DNA of 64,000 nt from a virus. Positions 320 through 14,907 of the stretch are shown here, one piece after another. The position numbers and the translations under genes are program-made. The notes beneath the pieces were generated by a model. The model did not search any database and had not been told where the DNA came from. It saw only the letters and a list, made by a program, of their open reading frames with translations. The stretch is taken from positions 1 to 64,000 of IMG/VR virus record IMGVR_UViG_3300032288_003197; one strand, given 5' to 3'. Within the stretch, counting starts at the first letter, position 1. Each line of letters opens with the position of its first letter.

Positions 320-397
320 TGGAGCATCGGGCTGGATTTGAACCAGCGAATCAACGGATTTGCAATCCGCGCCATTAGACCGCTCTGGTACCGATGC
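320..397 (-). tRNA. tRNA-Cys(GCA)
   Basis: Cloverleaf, anticodon loop TTGCAAA, GGTTCAAATCC, encoded CCA. Confidence 0.95.
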
Positions 398-403
398 ATT
401 GTT

Positions 404-478
404 TGGTAGGTGGTGACGGGATCGAACCGCCGACAGCTGCCGTGTAAAGACAGAGTTCTACCGCTGAACTAACCACCC
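404..478 (-). tRNA. tRNA-Val(TAC)
   Basis: Cloverleaf, loop TTTACAC, GGTTCGATCCC, CCA. Confidence 0.95.
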
Positions 479-486
479 AAATTGCG

Positions 487-648
487 TTATTGTTTGGTGC
501 GTTTGCTGCCGCGCAGTTCGCTTTCAAGAATGCGAACATAGTCCCGAACAAATTCACCGCGATGGTGATCATCAAGAATCTTTGCAGCTATGCGTTTTAC
601 ACTCTTGGGGAGCTTCACTGCTCGTGGATCATAACCTCTGCATGTCAT
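487..648 (-). CDS. hypothetical protein (MTCRGYDPRAVKL...)
   Basis: ORF filling the gap between tRNAs; start trimmed to the ATG outside tRNA-Pro. Confidence 0.6.
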   Translation of the reverse strand: MTCRGYDPRAVKLPKSVKRIAAKILDDHHRGEFVRDYVRILESELRGSKRTKQ

Positions 649-667
649 ATCTACTCTTTCTAAAAAA

Positions 668-744
668 TGGTCGGAGTACAAGGATTCGAACCTTGGACCC
701 CCTGGTCCCAAACCAGGTGCGCTACCAGACTGCGCCACACTCCG
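668..744 (-). tRNA. tRNA-Pro(TGG)
   Basis: CGGAGTG acceptor, loop TTTGGGA, CCA. Confidence 0.95.
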
Positions 745-751
745 AATAAAC

Positions 752-967
752 TTACTTTAACTTTGGATCAATGCTTTTGTCAACTTCATGCGACTCTGCA
801 AACCGTTGTGGTTGGTCCATCCACATGGGAAAAAACTTCCACCCAAAACTTTTCCAGTATTTGTGAATGATGTTATTGATGAGCACTGCTCCAGCAACAA
901 TCACAATCAAACCCATCATTATCAAAATGCTTGCTGCTAAAAACACAGCTGACTGATCCATGTTCAT
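752..967 (-). CDS. small membrane protein
   Basis: AAGGA RBS; N-terminal hydrophobic helix. Confidence 0.65.
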   Translation of the reverse strand: MNMDQSAVFLAASILIMMGLIVIVAGAVLINNIIHKYWKSFGWKFFPMWMDQPQRFAESHEVDKSIDPKLK

Positions 968-977
968 GTTATTCCTT

Positions 978-1051
978 TGGAGCGGGGCAGGAGAATCGAA
1001 CTCCTCGCATGAGCTTGGAAGGCTCAGGTATTACCACTATACGAGCCCCGC
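978..1051 (-). tRNA. tRNA-Gly(TCC)
   Basis: Cloverleaf, loop CTTCCAA, CCA. Confidence 0.95.
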
Positions 1052-1065
1052 GTTGCAATTTAGTT

Positions 1066-1094
1066 ATTGTACGACAACTCGTCATTGTCGTCAA
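1066..1094 (-). promoter_or_regulatory. sigma70-type promoter inside tRNA array
   Basis: TTGACG-17nt-TACAAT upstream of tRNA-Gly(TCC). Confidence 0.65.
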
Positions 1095-1100
1095 CACATT

Positions 1101-1177
1101 TGGTGGTGAAGGTCAGGATCGAACTGACGACCTCAGGGTTATGAATCCTGCGCTCTCACCGGCTGAGCTACATCACC
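1101..1177 (-). tRNA. tRNA-Met(CAT), probably elongator
   Basis: Cloverleaf, loop TTCATAA, paired 1-72. Confidence 0.9.
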
Positions 1178-1178
1178 A

Positions 1179-1253
1179 TGGGGTGTCGTATGAGAATCGA
1201 ACTCATGATAGCGGAATCACAACCCGCGGTTTTACCACTAAACTAACGTCACC
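1179..1253 (-). tRNA. tRNA-His(GTG)
   Basis: Loop TTGTGAT, G-1/C73 signature, CCA. Confidence 0.93.
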
Positions 1254-1287
1254 ATATAGAAACACACTACAACAATAGGTTTTTATA

Positions 1288-1361
1288 TGGTAGGGGTGCA
1301 GGGGAACGATCCCTGTTTTACTGGTTAAAAGCCAGTTACTTCACCTTAAAGTTTCACCCCC
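1288..1361 (-). tRNA. tRNA-Lys(TTT), atypical T-loop
   Basis: ACTGG-CTTTTAA-CCAGT anticodon arm, CCA; T-loop reads GATCGTTC instead of GTTCGAATC. Confidence 0.85.
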
Positions 1362-1389
1362 TGGGTTTATCACTCTTGTCACTGTCCAT
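1354..1389 (-). CDS. putative 11-aa micropeptide MDSDKSDKPRG
   Basis: Strong AAGGAG RBS before ATG; stop TGA lies inside the 5' end of tRNA-Lys. Confidence 0.4.
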   Translation of the reverse strand: MDSDKSDKPRG

Positions 1390-1436
1390 GGGACTCTCCT
1401 TTTAATTAAACTTTTGATGCAATCTGTAAATATTGC

Positions 1437-2234
1437 ATGTCAGATATCACAGTAATTTTTCAAAATCAACCGCCAATACATATCAAACTCTATGATACTG
1501 CTGCTGCCGCGCATTGGCGCAAACTGTTTGTTCAAAACTATCAACAAAAATTTCCACTGTTTCGGGACATGCAAAAATATACCTGGAAATATCTTGAACA
1601 TCTAGTAGATCAGGCAAACAAAACATGTGGATGGAATTTTACAACACAAATTCAAAATCTTCAAGACACAGTGGATTTGCACAAACACATTGAAGTCACG
1701 TTGGCCAACGGATATCAAAACATCCCATCTGACTGGGACCACTTGCTGGACGAGTTACATTTTGCCTTGCATACTGTCCAGCAAACAAAACTGTCTAACA
1801 TATCACGCCGTGGTAACTTTCTTCAAATTGAGTGGTTCAACGATGATTATGTTCCATTACCAGAAGATTTTGTGTTTACATCAAATCTTCAATTTGGAGA
1901 TCTAAGACTTCAAAATGCCTATGTGGGGCACATCCCGTTACAGATTTTTGAACAAAATGATTTTGCCAATGTTTTTCAAACTTGTCGATTTCATGACAGA
2001 ATCAAACCGGGACTAAACATTACAATTTTTTCAGGCAACCGTGTACTACCCAACATCGAAACCTATACTCAATGGTGGAATACTCATGCCCCAGAGTTTG
2101 TCAAATATCATGGCTGGAACAAAATTATGTACTACACTGGACATCCAATCATTGGGCAAGTTGTCAACACCGATGATCTTGCCAAGGTTGCCACATGTGC
2201 CGAAGTATTAGAACTTCAAGAAGTGATTTACTGA
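1437..2234 (+). CDS. hypothetical protein
   Basis: 265-aa ORF, AT-richer than flanks; only convincing plus-strand gene in the window. Confidence 0.8.
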   Translation: MSDITVIFQNQPPIHIKLYDTAAAAHWRKLFVQNYQQKFPLFRDMQKYTWKYLEHLVDQANKTCGWNFTTQIQNLQDTVDLHKHIEVTLANGYQNIPSDWDHLLDELHFALHTVQQTKLSNISRRGNFLQIEWFNDDYVPLPEDFVFTSNLQFGDLRLQNAYVGHIPLQIFEQNDFANVFQTCRFHDRIKPGLNITIFSGNRVLPNIETYTQWWNTHAPEFVKYHGWNKIMYYTGHPIIGQVVNTDDLAKVATCAEVLELQEVIY

Positions 2235-2244
2235 TTTAAAAATT

Positions 2245-2325
2245 TGGTACCCCAGACGGGATTTGAACCCGCATTTAAATTTCTCCTTTTGAGAGAGACG
2301 ACTTTGCCAATTTGTCTACTGGGGC
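2245..2325 (-). tRNA. tRNA-Leu(CAA)
   Basis: Loop CTCAAAA, extended variable arm, CCA. Confidence 0.9.
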
Positions 2326-2332
2326 ACAAAAA

Positions 2333-2408
<76 letters not shown>

Positions 2409-2415
2409 ATTGTAT

Positions 2416-2491
2416 TGGCTCCCCGACCTGGATTCGAACCAGGCTTCACGGATTAACAGTCCGCCGCCTTCACCTAGATTGCTCTCGGGGA
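2416..2491 (-). tRNA. tRNA-Asn(GTT)
   Basis: Loop CTGTTAA, G73, CCA. Confidence 0.93.
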
Positions 2492-2980
2492 ATTTAATTT
2501 TTTGTATCTTATATTTTTTGCTCGGTGTGTCGGTGTTTGACTATGACAGTTCGGACACAAGATACGCAAGTTTTCAATTTTATTATTAACGTTGTTTCCG
2601 TCTATGTGATCTAATTCTAATGATAATGGCTTGCCGTTGTAAACATTGCTAATTCCACATTCTTCGCAAGTATGATTGCGTTCAACTAACAATCTTCTTC
2701 GCAATGAATCATGGGCCATTTCTTCGTGTGGACGACTCCAAGATTTTGCTCTATGAATTGCAGAAGTTTTTCTTTGGGCTTCCGCTTTATCATACTTTAA
2801 CATCTTTTGAGCATTAATTTCTTTGCGCTGTGCTTCGGTAGTATCAGAATAAAAGTCCAACATTGCCTTGCGCTTTTTTTCTTTAGATTTGTCTGTAAAA
2901 GTCCTGCTGTTAGCACAACTTCGGCTGCAAAACAAACCTTGTTTTTCATGAACCATGCTGCATTTTGGACATGCTTTCAT
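2474..2980 (-). CDS. HNH homing endonuclease
   Basis: CxxC...LELDHIDGNNVNNKIENLRILCPNCH; stop overlaps tRNA-Asn 5' end. Confidence 0.92.
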   Translation of the reverse strand: MKACPKCSMVHEKQGLFCSRSCANSRTFTDKSKEKKRKAMLDFYSDTTEAQRKEINAQKMLKYDKAEAQRKTSAIHRAKSWSRPHEEMAHDSLRRRLLVERNHTCEECGISNVYNGKPLSLELDHIDGNNVNNKIENLRILCPNCHSQTPTHRAKNIRYKKLNSPRAI

Positions 2981-2983
2981 ATT

Positions 2984-3021
2984 GAACCTCCGATACTTTT
3001 ATTTATATCTTTCGGAGGTTC
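2984..3021 (-). promoter_or_regulatory. RBS-sequestering hairpin with late promoter in its loop
   Basis: GAACCTCCGA/TCGGAGGTTC 10-bp stem hides GGAGG; TATAAATA in the loop. Confidence 0.8.
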
Positions 3022-3035
3022 GACGCTAGATAACT

Positions 3036-3110
3036 TGGTGCCCCGGGGGTGAATCGAACACCCGACCTCGGATTACAAAACCGATGTTTTACCACTAGAA
3101 CTAACGGGGC
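3036..3110 (-). tRNA. tRNA-Thr(TGT)
   Basis: Loop TTTGTAA, CCA. Confidence 0.94.
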
Positions 3111-3119
3111 TAAATTTTT

Positions 3120-3209
3120 TGGCGGAGAGTTAGGGAGTCGAACCCTATCAGCGGCTCGTCACCACCGCGGGATTAGCAATCCCGTGCCTTACCATCCGGC
3201 CCACTCTCC
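3120..3209 (-). tRNA. tRNA-Ser(GCT)
   Basis: Loop TTGCTAA, long variable arm, G73. Confidence 0.95.
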
Positions 3210-3218
3210 GTCTACGCT

Positions 3219-3247
3219 ATTATATAGTCGACACTGTTGTGTGTCAA
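3219..3247 (-). promoter_or_regulatory. sigma70-type promoter inside tRNA array
   Basis: TTGACA-17nt-TATAAT, perfect consensus, upstream of tRNA-Ser. Confidence 0.75.
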
Positions 3248-3255
3248 CAAAATCT

Positions 3256-3332
3256 TGGTGCCTGTTCGTGGTCTCGAACCACGGACCCCCGCGTTATCAA
3301 CACGGTGCTCTAACCAACTGAGCTAAACAGGC
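3256..3332 (-). tRNA. tRNA-Ile(GAT)
   Basis: Loop TTGATAA, CCA. Confidence 0.95.
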
Positions 3333-3335
3333 CAC

Positions 3336-3411
3336 TGGCAGGGGATGATGGGATCGAACCACCGAATGTCTGAATCAAAATCAGATGCCTTACCACTTGG
3401 CGAATCCCCTA
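3336..3411 (-). tRNA. tRNA-Gln(TTG)
   Basis: Loop TTTTGAT, CCA. Confidence 0.93.
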
Positions 3412-3417
3412 CAAACA

Positions 3418-3492
3418 TGGCATCCCGCCAGGGATTCGAACCCCGTCCCACGGTTTTGGAGACCGTCATGCTGCCGTTGACACCAGCGAGAT
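3418..3492 (-). tRNA. tRNA-Trp(CCA)
   Basis: Loop CTCCAAA, CCA end. Confidence 0.92.
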
Positions 3493-3499
3493 ACAAATA

Positions 3500-3575
3500 T
3501 GGTGGAGGTAAACGGGATCGAACCGATGACCCCCTGCTTGCAAAGCAGGTGCTCTCCCAGCTGAGCTATACCCCC
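3500..3575 (-). tRNA. tRNA-Ala(TGC)
   Basis: G3:U70, loop TTTGCAA. Confidence 0.96.
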
Positions 3576-3584
3576 AAACTTTTA

Positions 3585-3785
3585 ACACACTCTTGAGAAT
3601 GTGTGTATTAAAGCATACTAGCCGCTCTGTTTCTTCTGTATGCCTACAGATTGTATCCATTCGTCTAATATGCTTTAATACGCTGTGATTTTTCACACCA
3701 CACAAGGTGCTCCATCCCACAGGCCGCCCATTTGCAACTGTTTAGAGTGTGTTGCAGGATCGCGTTTCCTGGTCGCACTTGGAGA
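3585..3785 (-). ncRNA. unassigned structured RNA candidate(s)
   Basis: 17-bp stem 3605-3621/3665-3681 (G-U pair only on minus strand) plus a GC-rich multi-stem unit at about 3703-3782; no credible ORF. Confidence 0.5.
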
Positions 3786-3959
3786 TCAAAGATCAAAAAT
3801 TCGAGCTTTGGATTCTCTCTGGTTTACTTTTTCACGAAATGCTCGAGCTCGTTCATACTTTTCATCAATCAGTTTGCGAAACTGTTCCTCGGTAAGGTGA
3901 TTTTCAGTAGTGAATTTGATCTCTCGCATGCGTTTTCTAAAATCAATTTTTTCCTTCAT
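3786..3959 (-). CDS. small basic hypothetical protein (MKEKIDFRKR...)
   Basis: ORF starting just after the attenuator terminator. Confidence 0.6.
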   Translation of the reverse strand: MKEKIDFRKRMREIKFTTENHLTEEQFRKLIDEKYERARAFREKVNQRESKARIFDL

Positions 3960-3971
3960 AATCTTTTGCAA

Positions 3972-4039
3972 AACAAAAAACCCAGGGTGTTTAGTCCTGG
4001 GTCCTGGGGTAAGATACAGTTGTATGTTACTTAGGACCC
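3972..4039 (-). terminator. attenuator 1: mutually exclusive terminator/antiterminator
   Basis: Terminator ACCCAGG-loop-CCTGGGT+TTTTT; antiterminator GGGTCCT(4039-4033)/AGGACCC(4005-3999) shares ACCC with the terminator. Confidence 0.8.
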
Positions 4040-4141
4040 TGAGCCTCCTGGAATGCTGTTCAAGCCTGTAAATGTGCGTGGCCAGACTGATGTCTGAGGC
4101 ATCGCAGATTTTTGTAGCACTGAACACATTGTATGTTTCAT
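4031..4141 (-). CDS. leader peptide 1 (36 aa) MKHTMCSVLQKSAMPQTSVWPRTFTGLNSIPGGSGS
   Basis: Manual translation; directly behind promoter; last codons and stop overlap the antiterminator 5' strand. Confidence 0.72.
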   Translation of the reverse strand: MKHTMCSVLQKSAMPQTSVWPRTFTGLNSIPGGSGS

Positions 4142-4151
4142 CTTAAGTCCT

Positions 4152-4180
4152 ATTGTACTTTATTTATGATTGTTTGTCAA
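4152..4180 (-). promoter_or_regulatory. composite sigma70 + late promoter for leader 1
   Basis: TTGACA-17nt-TACAAT with CATAAATA inside the spacer. Confidence 0.75.
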
Positions 4181-5411: not shown

Positions 5412-5500
5412 GTAGGAGTGGTGGGAATCGAACCCACATTCGCCGCCTTATCTAGACGGTGCTTACGAGGATATAAATCTCGCCCTTAGGCCAATATTAG
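5410..5500 (-). tRNA. atypical tRNA-like RNA, apparent anticodon TAT, very long variable arm
   Basis: GGGAGTG/CACTCCT-A-CCA acceptor and canonical T-arm; weak D-stem; loop TTTATAT; about 28-nt extra region with CCGTCT/AGGCGG stem. Confidence 0.7.
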
Positions 5501-5519
5501 CAACACTCCCATTATTCTC

Positions 5520-6545: not shown

Positions 6546-6551
6546 CCACAT

Positions 6552-6618
6552 AAAGAAAAACCCTGCTAGTTGCAGGGCCTTTGTTGATGTAGTAATTTTT
6601 ACTTACTGACAAAGACCC
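6552..6618 (-). terminator. attenuator 2: terminator/antiterminator
   Basis: Terminator CCCTGC-AACTA-GCAGGG+TTTTTCTTT; antiterminator GGGTCTTTGT(6618-6609)/ACAAAGGCCC(6584-6575) overlaps its 5' arm. Confidence 0.78.
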
Positions 6619-6680
6619 AACAGAACACCCTGCTCATAATCTGAGCCCTGTATAGGATTGAATGCGATTGTTGTCATCAT
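6603..6680 (-). CDS. leader peptide 2 (25 aa) MMTTIAFNPIQGSDYEQGVLLGLCQ
   Basis: Manual translation; ATG 7 nt after the -10 box (leaderless); last codons overlap the antiterminator 5' strand. Confidence 0.68.
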   Translation of the reverse strand: MMTTIAFNPIQGSDYEQGVLLGLCQ

Positions 6681-6686
6681 GGTGTA

Positions 6687-6715
6687 ATTGTATATGATTA
6701 TTTATACTGTGTCAA
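6687..6715 (-). promoter_or_regulatory. composite sigma70 + late promoter for leader 2
   Basis: TTGACA-17nt-TACAAT with TATAAATA (6706-6699) inside the spacer. Confidence 0.75.
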
Positions 6716-8074: not shown

Positions 8075-8093
8075 CGAAATATTTAGCCAAAGG

Positions 8094-8115
8094 AAAACCC
8101 GCCGAAGCGGGCTCC
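8094..8115 (-). terminator. intrinsic terminator after tmRNA
   Basis: GCCCGC-TTCG-GCGGGT-TTT. Confidence 0.8.
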
Positions 8116-8456
8116 GAGTTTCTGTTACGAGGTATGTCTTACCCTAGGCTGCGTTTAGGCTGCCAATGCGAACTGTTCGTCGTTTGCGTTTACGTTTTTT
8201 GCTTGATTTACGGTCATCGCCTACCGTGCTGTCCACTCCGTTACTCTTGACCCAATCGATCCTGTGTCAGGCCCATCAAAAAGATTCTTCCATCTGTCCA
8301 GTGCTTCGTGATAGCTGATCCAGACACATCCTTCGCAACCTCGGCCACAACAAGTAGTTGGCTCTTGTGGTCTAGGGTAAAAATCTTTTTGGTGGACCTG
8401 GGCGGCACTGCCCCGCCGTCTTGAATCCGTTTCTCTTTGCTTCATACAGCAATAAC
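8115..8456 (-). ncRNA. ssrA: permuted two-piece tmRNA, tag ANDEQFALAA
   Basis: Acceptor piece ends GGTCCACCA (8390); intervening segment 8389-8275; coding piece starts GGGCCTGAC (8274); tag frame 8187-8155; promoter TTGACG-17-TATACT upstream. Confidence 0.92.
8221..8445 (-). CDS. ORF through tmRNA carrying a Cys-rich oxidoreductase-like domain in the intervening segment
   Basis: [29 protein letters not shown] resembles the Oxidored-like N-terminal domain (PxEP..CC..GC..CVW..Y...L..W). Confidence 0.5.
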
Positions 8457-8472
8457 TTGCAGTATACTGTTT

Positions 8473-8691
8473 TTAGATATTGTCGTCAACCAGTTCGATC
8501 ACGTAGCCAATGTATTCTTTGGCGCGCTCACCGTCGCCAGCATCAATGGCTCCTTGTGCATCATCCAAGTAACCCATCATCTGACTGCGCAGATCGGCCA
8601 TGCTGCCTTCGCGTCGGTCTGGACGAGGAGCATCCATTGCGTCTGCTTCTTTGATGATGTCAATGTATCGTTTTAAATTGCTCATGGTCAA
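8473..8691 (-). CDS. hypothetical protein, possible internal virion protein
   Basis: TATAAATA late promoter and AGGA RBS; N-terminus LKRYIDIIKE. Confidence 0.7.
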   Translation of the reverse strand: MTMSNLKRYIDIIKEADAMDAPRPDRREGSMADLRSQMMGYLDDAQGAIDAGDGERAKEYIGYVIELVDDNI

Positions 8692-14334: not shown

Positions 14335-14409
14335 TGGTCCGGCCACCAGGAATCGAACCTGGATTGACTGCTTAGAAGGCAGATGTTCTATCCATTGAAC
14401 TATGGCCAG
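14335..14409 (-). tRNA. tRNA-Arg(TCT)
   Basis: Loop CTTCTAA, CCA. Confidence 0.93.
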
Positions 14410-14412
14410 AAT

Positions 14413-14489
14413 TGGTGCGCCCACTAGGACTTGAACCTAGGACCAATGGATTATGAGTCCACTGCTCTGACCAACTGAGCTATAGGCGC
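14413..14489 (-). tRNA. tRNA-Ile2(CAT) (lysidine type) or Met
   Basis: GACTCATAATC-ATTGGTC resembles bacterial ileX; own promoter TTGACG-17-TATAAT at about 14500-14529. Confidence 0.85.
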
Positions 14490-14544
14490 ATTTAAACTTA
14501 TTATAACAGAAAATTTATTTAACCGTCAAGTTCTTTTTGGTATT

Positions 14545-14907
14545 TCATGTCACTAGCGAAACCAGCCAAATGTATGTCAAGGCATGTAGGAATTGATCCA
14601 GGCCCAGCAACCACCAAAATTGATCGTGTGTGCTGGGCGCCCAGCCCATTTTAGCGTTGAGATTAGTTTTGACCCAGTCGATGTGATAGTGAATTACAGC
14701 ATCCGCACAGGCCAACCAGGCCGCAGCCATGGGAGCATACCACGCAAAACAAATCCAGGTACCAATGCCATGCAGGCCTGCATGCAGTAGGCCGCCCGGG
14801 TGCAGGTAGATGCCTTTGTTGCTGTACTGATATCGATGTTGCAGTGGAAAATCTACCACAAAGTGTTTGGCAAACAATGCCAACACCAGCCACAAGGTTG
14901 GATTCAT
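14545..14907 (-). CDS. DUF3307-like membrane protein
   Basis: HFVVDFPLQ, H...H, HYHIDWVK, DQFLH. Confidence 0.8.
   Translation of the reverse strand: MNPTLWLVLALFAKHFVVDFPLQHRYQYSNKGIYLHPGGLLHAGLHGIGTWICFAWYAPMAAAWLACADAVIHYHIDWVKTNLNAKMGWAPSTHDQFWWLLGLDQFLHALTYIWLVSLVT

Follow-up and report, generated by a model that had tools for sequence, protein, structure and literature searches.

A probable leader-peptide attenuator ahead of a phage tRNA array is written in the codons of the tRNAs that follow it

The stretch of DNA analysed here (the window) covers positions 1 to 64,000 of a 72,339-base contig from a giant lake phage, IMG/VR record IMGVR_UViG_3300032288_003197, and contains 22 transfer RNA (tRNA) genes and a permuted transfer-messenger RNA (tmRNA), all on the minus strand. 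A short unit ahead of a 16-gene tRNA array contains a 36-codon open reading frame (ORF) whose codons correspond to the tRNAs encoded downstream. We interpret this unit, with a probability of roughly 0.7, as a transcription attenuator of the ribosome-mediated leader-peptide kind, placed in control of the phage tRNA array, such that slow ribosomes on the leader codons would probably cause the phage to make more tRNA. A promoter, a conserved open frame, two competing RNA helices and the match between codons and tRNAs emerge from the sequence and from its comparison with relatives. Along the minus strand the order is tRNA-Met, promoter, 36-codon ORF, small hairpin, terminator, 57-codon ORF, tRNA-Ala and the rest of the array. 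The parts of the unit and its surroundings are as follows.

4284-4210, minus strand: tRNA-Met, which precedes the unit promoter
4175-4180, minus strand: -35 hexamer TTGACA, from a promoter scan; present in every homologous unit
4152-4157, minus strand: -10 hexamer TACAAT, from a promoter scan; kept in homologous units
4031-4141, minus strand: leader ORF of 36 sense codons plus TAA, with the ATG at 4141 and the TAA at 4033-4031
4052-4130, minus strand: long hairpin within the leader ORF, predicted by single-sequence folds
4033-4039, minus strand: antiterminator 5' strand GGGUCCU, formed by the last two sense codons and the first base of the stop codon
4009-4030, minus strand: small hairpin inside the antiterminator helix, seen in folds; 83.9% of alignment cells paired
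3999-4005, minus strand: antiterminator 3' strand AGGACCC, common to the terminator 5' arm
3975-4005, minus strand: intrinsic terminator, with 5' arm 4005-3996, loop, 3' arm 3986-3977 and U tract 3980-3975
3786-3959, minus strand: 57-codon ORF, the first gene met by read-through, starting about 15 nucleotides past the terminator U tract
320-3575, minus strand: 16 downstream tRNA genes, in an array cut by the contig end at position 1

The promoter, TTGACA-17 nucleotides-TACAAT (4180-4152), matches 11 of 12 consensus positions, and its geometry predicts a transcription start at about 4146-4143. The terminator hairpin (-13.9 kcal/mol) is followed by a U tract. What follows the terminator first is the 57-codon ORF and not the tRNA genes. 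That ORF is kept in the relatives L003 and L009 and missing from most others, where its place is taken either directly by the tRNAs or by another small gene that has a clear ribosome-binding site. A Pfam search gave no family for the leader ORF and none for the 57-codon ORF. Just short segments of the long hairpin within the leader ORF reappear in the alignment consensus; it is possibly a pause or structure element.

In the proposed mechanism, the very strong sigma-70-type promoter would start the RNA either right at the AUG of the 36-codon ORF or a few bases ahead of it. A ribosome that moved quickly to the stop codon would cover GGGUCCU, the terminator would form, and transcription would end at about 3975. 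If a ribosome were absent or held earlier in the ORF, GGGUCCU would pair with AGGACCC, no terminator would form, and the antiterminated RNA polymerase would continue into the 57-codon ORF and then the tRNA genes. Since the leader is written in the codons of the downstream tRNAs and avoids those of upstream ones, slow decoding would raise the matching phage tRNAs, so that tRNA supply would be under negative feedback. From the elements described below we infer where transcription starts, that the ORF is translated, how the masking works and which physiological signal is read.

Each of the 16 downstream tRNAs (Ala, Trp, Gln, Ile, Ser, Thr, Asn, Gly, Leu, Lys, His, Met, Gly, Pro, Val and Cys, in array order) has at least one cognate codon in the leader ORF under standard wobble, as the first-pass annotation had claimed; 19 of the 36 codons match the array by Watson-Crick pairing and 26 with wobble. 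Random 36-codon ORFs drawn from the contig codon usage reached full coverage in 100 of 200,000 cases (P ~5e-4, or about 5 in 10,000). Of 187 small ORFs in the contig with 36-45 codons, only this leader did so, and none of 1,537 windows of 36 codons taken from long ORFs did. Codons 20-33 read TGG CCA CGC ACA TTT ACA GGC TTG AAC AGC ATT CCA GGA GGC, exactly as first listed, and the downstream anticodons Trp-CCA, Pro-TGG, Thr-TGT, Gly-GCC, Leu-CAA, Asn-GTT, Ser-GCT, Ile-GAT and Gly-TCC were likewise correctly named. The stretch of nine consecutive decodable codons that had been singled out also exists (codons 25-33, the longest run), though as a statistic it is weak (P = 0.04 for a run of at least nine), and the count of at least 26 decodable codons is another of the weaker measures (P = 0.015). 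Agreement at the level of amino acids is 18 of 20 (P = 8e-4). The full-coverage statistic was picked after looking at the locus, and as a single locus could not settle the matter with a statistic chosen post hoc, relatives were sought.

No cultured relative was recovered: a blastn search of the region against a phage collection returned tRNA matches only, and a tblastn search with the neighbouring 286-residue protein returned nothing. Scans of viral contigs with a 265-residue ORF, the 57-residue ORF and the exact terminator stretch gave no match, and a single-protein scan of viral contigs found one contig, which ends short of the unit described above yet spans a second unit of the window (see below). 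The neighbouring 286-residue gene has 100 metagenome homologues, and through their alignment 68 metagenome and 26 viral loci were taken. Beside these homologues, in many metagenomic and IMG/VR contigs, the promoter-to-terminator stretch is present at 69-90% identity (blastn), and a conserved-core motif picked out 24 more in IMG/VR, where the contigs reach 331 kb. A scan for the architecture as such (promoter with an ATG close by, short ORF, T-run hairpin) yielded 29 distinct units belonging to several unrelated sequence types.

The fold of the transcript is better than those of its shuffled versions (z = -3.8), and RNAalifold applied to 16 sequences picks the antiterminator helix. In the alignment, 95.7% of antiterminator cells are paired, with 2 compensatory pairs, and 21-44% when the partners are slid (whole structure counted); for the terminator helix the corresponding values are 97.6%, 3 compensatory pairs and 17-62%. 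Strand 4005-3999 is common to both helices, which makes them mutually exclusive. The competition first proposed between the GGGUCCU (4039-4033)/AGGACCC (4005-3999) pairing and the terminator is thus borne out by folds and alignment alike. The same property was assessed in a set of 30 units, made up of the 29 from the architecture scan plus two that the scan had missed, less one duplicate RNA. Each RNA was cut before the terminator 3' arm and scored for pairing of at least 5 nucleotides of the 5' arm with the last 33 nucleotides of the ORF. Competing pairing was found in 30 of 30 units vs 254 of 1,200 codon-shuffled controls (21%). Constrained folds, which are predictions, agree with the switch first suggested, in which masking at the TAA allows termination and stalling frees the antiterminator: a ribosome-sized mask placed at the stop codon leads to the terminator fold, and one placed at codons 19-28 to the antiterminator fold.

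The frame opened by the promoter-proximal ATG is conserved. It is open in all 16 nucleotide-similarity homologues and ends at the same helix; of the other two frames, one has 2-4 stops in each homologue and the third is open in 8 of the 16. Alignment gaps inside the ORF measure 3, 3 and 6 nucleotides, and those outside it 1, 2, 10 or 11. Pairwise codon differences in the leader comprise 210 synonymous vs 627 non-synonymous changes, and variable columns are spread over the three codon positions (14, 16 and 17 of 37) with no third-position excess. This pattern suggests conservation of the frame and of translation and not of the peptide, as befits a regulatory leader, and disfavours a functional micro-protein. 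The first-pass annotation had set frameshifted homologous leaders without codon bias against its own proposal; the frame is kept in 16 of 16, and codon matching is specific, as described below. In nearly all units the ATG lies 5-7 nucleotides after the -10 hexamer, so the mRNA should be leaderless in most of them. The distance is 10 nucleotides in the window, L003, L029 and the L100/L104 variants; in the window and L003 this is because the first ATG of an ATG-ATG pair is mutated. Twelve RNA sequencing runs each contained 0.05 of the sampled words; these words probably come from conserved tRNA sequence, and the runs are no evidence either way.

Same-strand tRNAs lie downstream of 26 of the 29 strictly defined units, and the other three run off their contigs. 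A looser scan returned 45 candidate sequences, with second ATGs counted separately; its run-off units are those of L007, L009, L015 and the second unit of L024, and the candidates that do not head tRNA arrays are an alternative frame inside a known unit and a weak candidate in L081. The whole 72-kb contig contains two units only, each ahead of a tRNA block. Leader coverage of array species beats random draws in most representatives:

Window: 16 of 16 species covered, P = 6e-4
L049: 20 of 20 species covered, P = 3e-4
L029: 23 of 24 species covered, P = 6e-4
L074a: 11 of 12 species covered, P = 8e-4
L008: 18 of 20 species covered, P = 0.004
L027: 21 of 23 species covered, P = 0.08
L058: 21 of 24 species covered, P = 0.13

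The idea that leaders are merely diverse, in the manner of a pangram, was considered and dropped as unsupported: the number of distinct amino acids gave P = 0.03-0.96 across leaders, with 17 vs 15.9 expected in the window (P = 0.35).

Gene order provides a more discriminating comparison, because a unit cannot control the tRNA genes that lie upstream of it. For these counts the first codon and the last six codons of each leader were removed. At the amino-acid level, for which 21 of the 45 rows had been dropped beforehand (fewer than four downstream tRNAs, or no upstream tRNA), the amino acids of downstream tRNAs were present in 291 of 308 cases over 24 leaders, and those found upstream only in 19 of 60. 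At the codon level, 14 representatives covered 198 of 235 downstream species and 7 of 40 upstream-only species, with P values for individual representatives ranging from <5e-5 to 0.057. The contrast holds in 11 representatives, one per subfamily, under strict, wobble and extended-wobble rules and with 0, 4, 6 or 8 tail codons removed (100-181 of 197 downstream vs 1-12 of 28 upstream-only). The set of amino acids avoided by the leader differs among about six lineages, for example:

This window: Asp, Glu, Tyr
Main clade: Asp, Glu (Tyr is in leader and array alike)
One subfamily: Cys, Asp, Glu
Another subfamily, with L115 and L118: His, Arg, Tyr, Asp

The amino acids avoided in the window belong to tRNAs that follow a second unit of the same architecture, the features of which are these.

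6550-6715, minus strand: second unit, with its promoter at 6715-6687, upstream of tRNA-Glu, Tyr and Asp (6402-6085)
6680-6603, minus strand: 25-codon ORF, with Asp-Tyr-Glu codons at 6641-6633
About 6620-6610, minus strand: antiterminator 5' strand
6582-6556, minus strand: terminator

Two short hexamers within the ORF of the second unit were tried as antiterminator strands and rejected, as they are not kept in the 91%-identical L001; the conserved helix sits further 3'. Where the tRNA block of relatives lacks tRNA-Tyr, the leader of their second unit reads Glu-x-Glu-x-Asp, or Glu-Arg-Glu-Asp-Asp ahead of Glu, Asp and Glu tRNAs. In the subfamily with His and Arg-ACG tRNAs upstream, the main leader is without His and Arg (and also Tyr and Asp), and it was predicted before looking that the upstream unit should carry the codons missing from that leader. 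The upstream leaders of L115 and L118 indeed hold a contiguous His-Asp-Tyr-Arg-Glu run, and the unit precedes Glu, Tyr, Asp, one further tRNA, Arg-ACG and His. At the upstream-unit site of the L098 subfamily (480-600) there is a promoter and a weak hairpin and no ORF.

A more specific proposal about the signal has the leader detecting tRNA loss in multiplex, as the sensing arm with which the phage would counter tRNA-targeting immunity. Any one tRNA species would be removed by a host defence nuclease or by infection-driven decay, and ribosomes would stop at its codon in the leader; the stalled ribosome would favour the antiterminator, and the phage would switch on replacement tRNAs. On this proposal, phages would split their tRNA genes into blocks, each with its own matching leader. 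We offer it tentatively and regard the odds as distinctly against it.

A rival explanation is a generic sensor of translation capacity: the attenuator would operate as proposed above and yet tell only how fast or how available ribosomes are in general, with the match of codons to the array as a by-product. Most tRNAs are represented by one leader codon, precision is modest in several leaders (P = 0.1-0.7), and the match is uninformative in L027 and L058 because their arrays hold nearly all amino acids, all of which such a sensor would accommodate; attenuators responding to general translation stress have been published for other genes, as described in the available text of PMC4191407. Upstream-only species are, however, covered far less often than the ~65-70% that a generic sensor leads one to expect, and the avoided set shifts with gene order from lineage to lineage (Asp/Glu/Tyr; Cys/Asp/Glu; His/Arg/Tyr/Asp). 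The His-Asp-Tyr-Arg-Glu and Asp-Tyr-Glu clusters fit the small arrays behind them, and the leaders are not unusually diverse. We consider this explanation unlikely.

The strong promoter, the stable fold and the unit's own terminator would also suit a terminated transcript of about 170 nucleotides that acts in trans as a small RNA, with the ORF and the proximity of tRNAs secondary, and small RNAs derived from attenuators are known, for example rnTrpL of Sinorhizobium meliloti (PMC6614838, in its available part). An RNA with a purely non-coding role would not be expected to show a frame kept in every homologue with in-frame indels only, an ATG that stays at the predicted start, a stop codon that always falls at the antiterminator strand, or a codon pattern that tracks tRNA gene order. 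We find a small-RNA role as the whole account quite improbable, and the two roles could coexist. Marginally less probable still is a gene for a small functional protein with its own terminator, in which the peptide acts and the alternative helix is incidental. ORF length is conserved and some residues recur across the main type, but the excess of non-synonymous change, the even spread over codon positions, the occurrence of unrelated peptides with the same RNA architecture and the failure to match any Pfam family all speak against selection for a peptide. That the ORF is spurious, caught between a promoter and the terminator of the upstream tRNA-Met unit, draws what support it has from the post hoc choice of statistic and from the ~0.1-0.2 such ORFs expected among the 187-342 small ORFs of the contig, and it is scarcely credible given conservation, covariation and the comparative codon tests, by which it is already close to refuted.

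Several observations weigh against the attenuator reading or limit its reach. Ten of the 36 leader codons are unread by the visible array (TCA three times, and TCT, TCC, CTA, CCT, GTC, CGC and TTT once each); of these, the first-pass annotation had named TTT, CGC, TCA and CTA. The tRNAs that it expected for its four codons, Phe-GAA, Arg-ACG, Ser-TGA and Leu-TAG, all occur in relatives' arrays, with Arg-ACG second in the 90%-identical L003. Representation of most tRNAs by one leader codon differs from the codon runs of classical attenuators, and single codons should sense a shortage weakly unless the tRNA is nearly absent. RNAalifold on the 16 sequences gave no conserved helix that rivals or sequesters the antiterminator strand when no ribosome is present: a consensus 5-bp helix (columns 64-68 with 102-106) avoids that strand, and RNA that is not being translated adopts the antiterminator fold. 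In contrast to trp, read-through should therefore be the default. With its ATG 10 nucleotides past the -10 hexamer in an RNA without a Shine-Dalgarno sequence, the level of translation in the window is uncertain. Promoter-like sites within the array (3247-3219, matching 12 of 12 consensus positions; 1094-1066; 783-754) could drive most of the 16 tRNAs without the attenuator, which limits clear dependence on the unit to the Ala, Trp, Gln and Ile tRNAs. Among the relatives, the match is not significant for the small second-type arrays taken alone, nor is amino-acid agreement for L029, L074b, L027 and L058; a Val tRNA is present without a Val leader codon in 5 of 14 leader/array sets; one subfamily retains a Tyr codon with tRNA-Tyr upstream; and leader L074b has four Asn codons with Asn tRNAs upstream. 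Pooled P values ignore shared ancestry, and there are about six independent lineages with distinct upstream sets.

Other features of the region are as follows. The array (320-3575) is interrupted by an HNH endonuclease gene (2474-2980, minus strand) and an unrelated ORF on the plus strand (1437-2234). Relatives conserve the spacer between the unit and tRNA-Ala (3584-3770, minus strand; query positions 551-654 and 702-737 in blastn), and a hairpin in it just ahead of tRNA-Ala may be a processing signal. A motif, (T/C/G)ATAAATA(A) or CTAAATAA, is located in or just upstream of the spacer of many unit promoters (in the window, at 4158-4174 and 6693-6709) and is without counterpart in units L005-B, L011-B, L020, L029 and L072. 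We take it to resemble a T4-type late promoter box, and it could be a second, late promoter that yields a longer 5' end. The tRNA-Met/Arg-TCT pair (14489-14335, minus strand) has a promoter resembling TTGACG-17-TATAAT directly ahead of it and no leader ORF (region 14335-14560), so not every tRNA block is attenuated. A 98-nucleotide Rfam tRNA match (41 bits) at 5413-5510 on the minus strand, which ARAGORN did not call, may hold an insertion or a long extra arm. The tmRNA, in two permuted pieces at 8092-8489 on the minus strand (Rfam, 124 and 110 bits), is located a few kb upstream of the tRNA blocks, and a ribosome-rescue RNA thus adjoins putative ribosome-stalling leaders. Odd anticodons occur in the arrays of relatives: L101 has CTA, an anticodon for the amber stop, L118 has AAT, and ACT turns up in several, with L005, L006, L010 and L013 among the loci noted.

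Leader-peptide attenuators are known for the trp, his, leu and phe operons, and multivalent leaders for thr and ilvGMEDA. T-box riboswitches likewise control transcription by attenuation, binding uncharged tRNA directly and needing no ORF. The phage unit would resemble a T-box in answering to the state of the tRNA pool, and differs from it in its conserved, translated-type frame; an Rfam search of 4180-3969 gave no leader family or T-box at gathering score and no match of any kind at E up to 10. As in trp-type attenuators, a short ORF heads the transcript and the 5' arm of the terminator can pair with a strand at the ORF end; the position of the ribosome would select the helix, and the control codons name the regulated product (trp mechanism as given in the available text of PMC4007540). 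Unlike the amino-acid attenuators, the unit precedes phage tRNA genes and not biosynthetic enzymes, its leader is a panel of many codons, mostly used once each and without a run, its mRNA is probably leaderless or nearly so, and it lacks a conserved helix that would block the antiterminator in untranslated RNA. Judged from sequence, the unit matches the trp/his/thr/ilv switch in each structural respect testable except for this missing protector helix.

Leaderless leader peptides have precedents. Fourteen were predicted in Deinococcus deserti ahead of tRNA-synthetase and amino-acid genes (PMC4007540), and the trpL RNA of S. meliloti is leaderless (PMC6614838). As far as the available text of these papers goes, such leaders resemble the phage unit in having a short ORF proposed or shown to control a downstream terminator, and would also share with it an AUG at the transcription start if the start predicted for the phage unit is right; some control genes of the translation machinery, namely aminoacyl-tRNA synthetases; each answers to one amino acid and controls protein genes, unlike the multivalent phage leader with its tRNA array as target. 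The nearest functional parallel in print, on the available parts of PMC8421152 and PMC10272220, is the tRNA array (trn operon) of Anabaena PCC 7120, which is induced under translational stress. It too is an accessory tRNA array switched on when translation is impaired, as we propose for the phage; unlike the phage unit it is cellular and is run by promoter direct repeats and the repressor TrcR, and the terms "attenuat", "leader peptide" and "terminator" have 0 occurrences in the available text of PMC8421152. Literature searches aimed at attenuator control of tRNA genes found no leader-peptide attenuation of tRNA genes, and a follow-up search yielded just the repressor-controlled Anabaena array. 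Against what is known, the unit stands apart in its putative target (the tRNA genes themselves), its multivalent panel, its predicted leaderless start and its phage setting.

Why phages carry tRNA genes, and how these are controlled, has been debated for decades (PMC10264068, in the part available). If the attenuator reading is true, a leader written in the codons of the tRNAs that follow it would report decoding speed directly and couple it to tRNA synthesis, and an old trp-type switch would gain a new target and a new logic. For the tRNA blocks of uncultured giant phages it would also supply a rule of annotation, by which the leader predicts the tRNAs that follow, as in the His-Asp-Tyr-Arg-Glu case.

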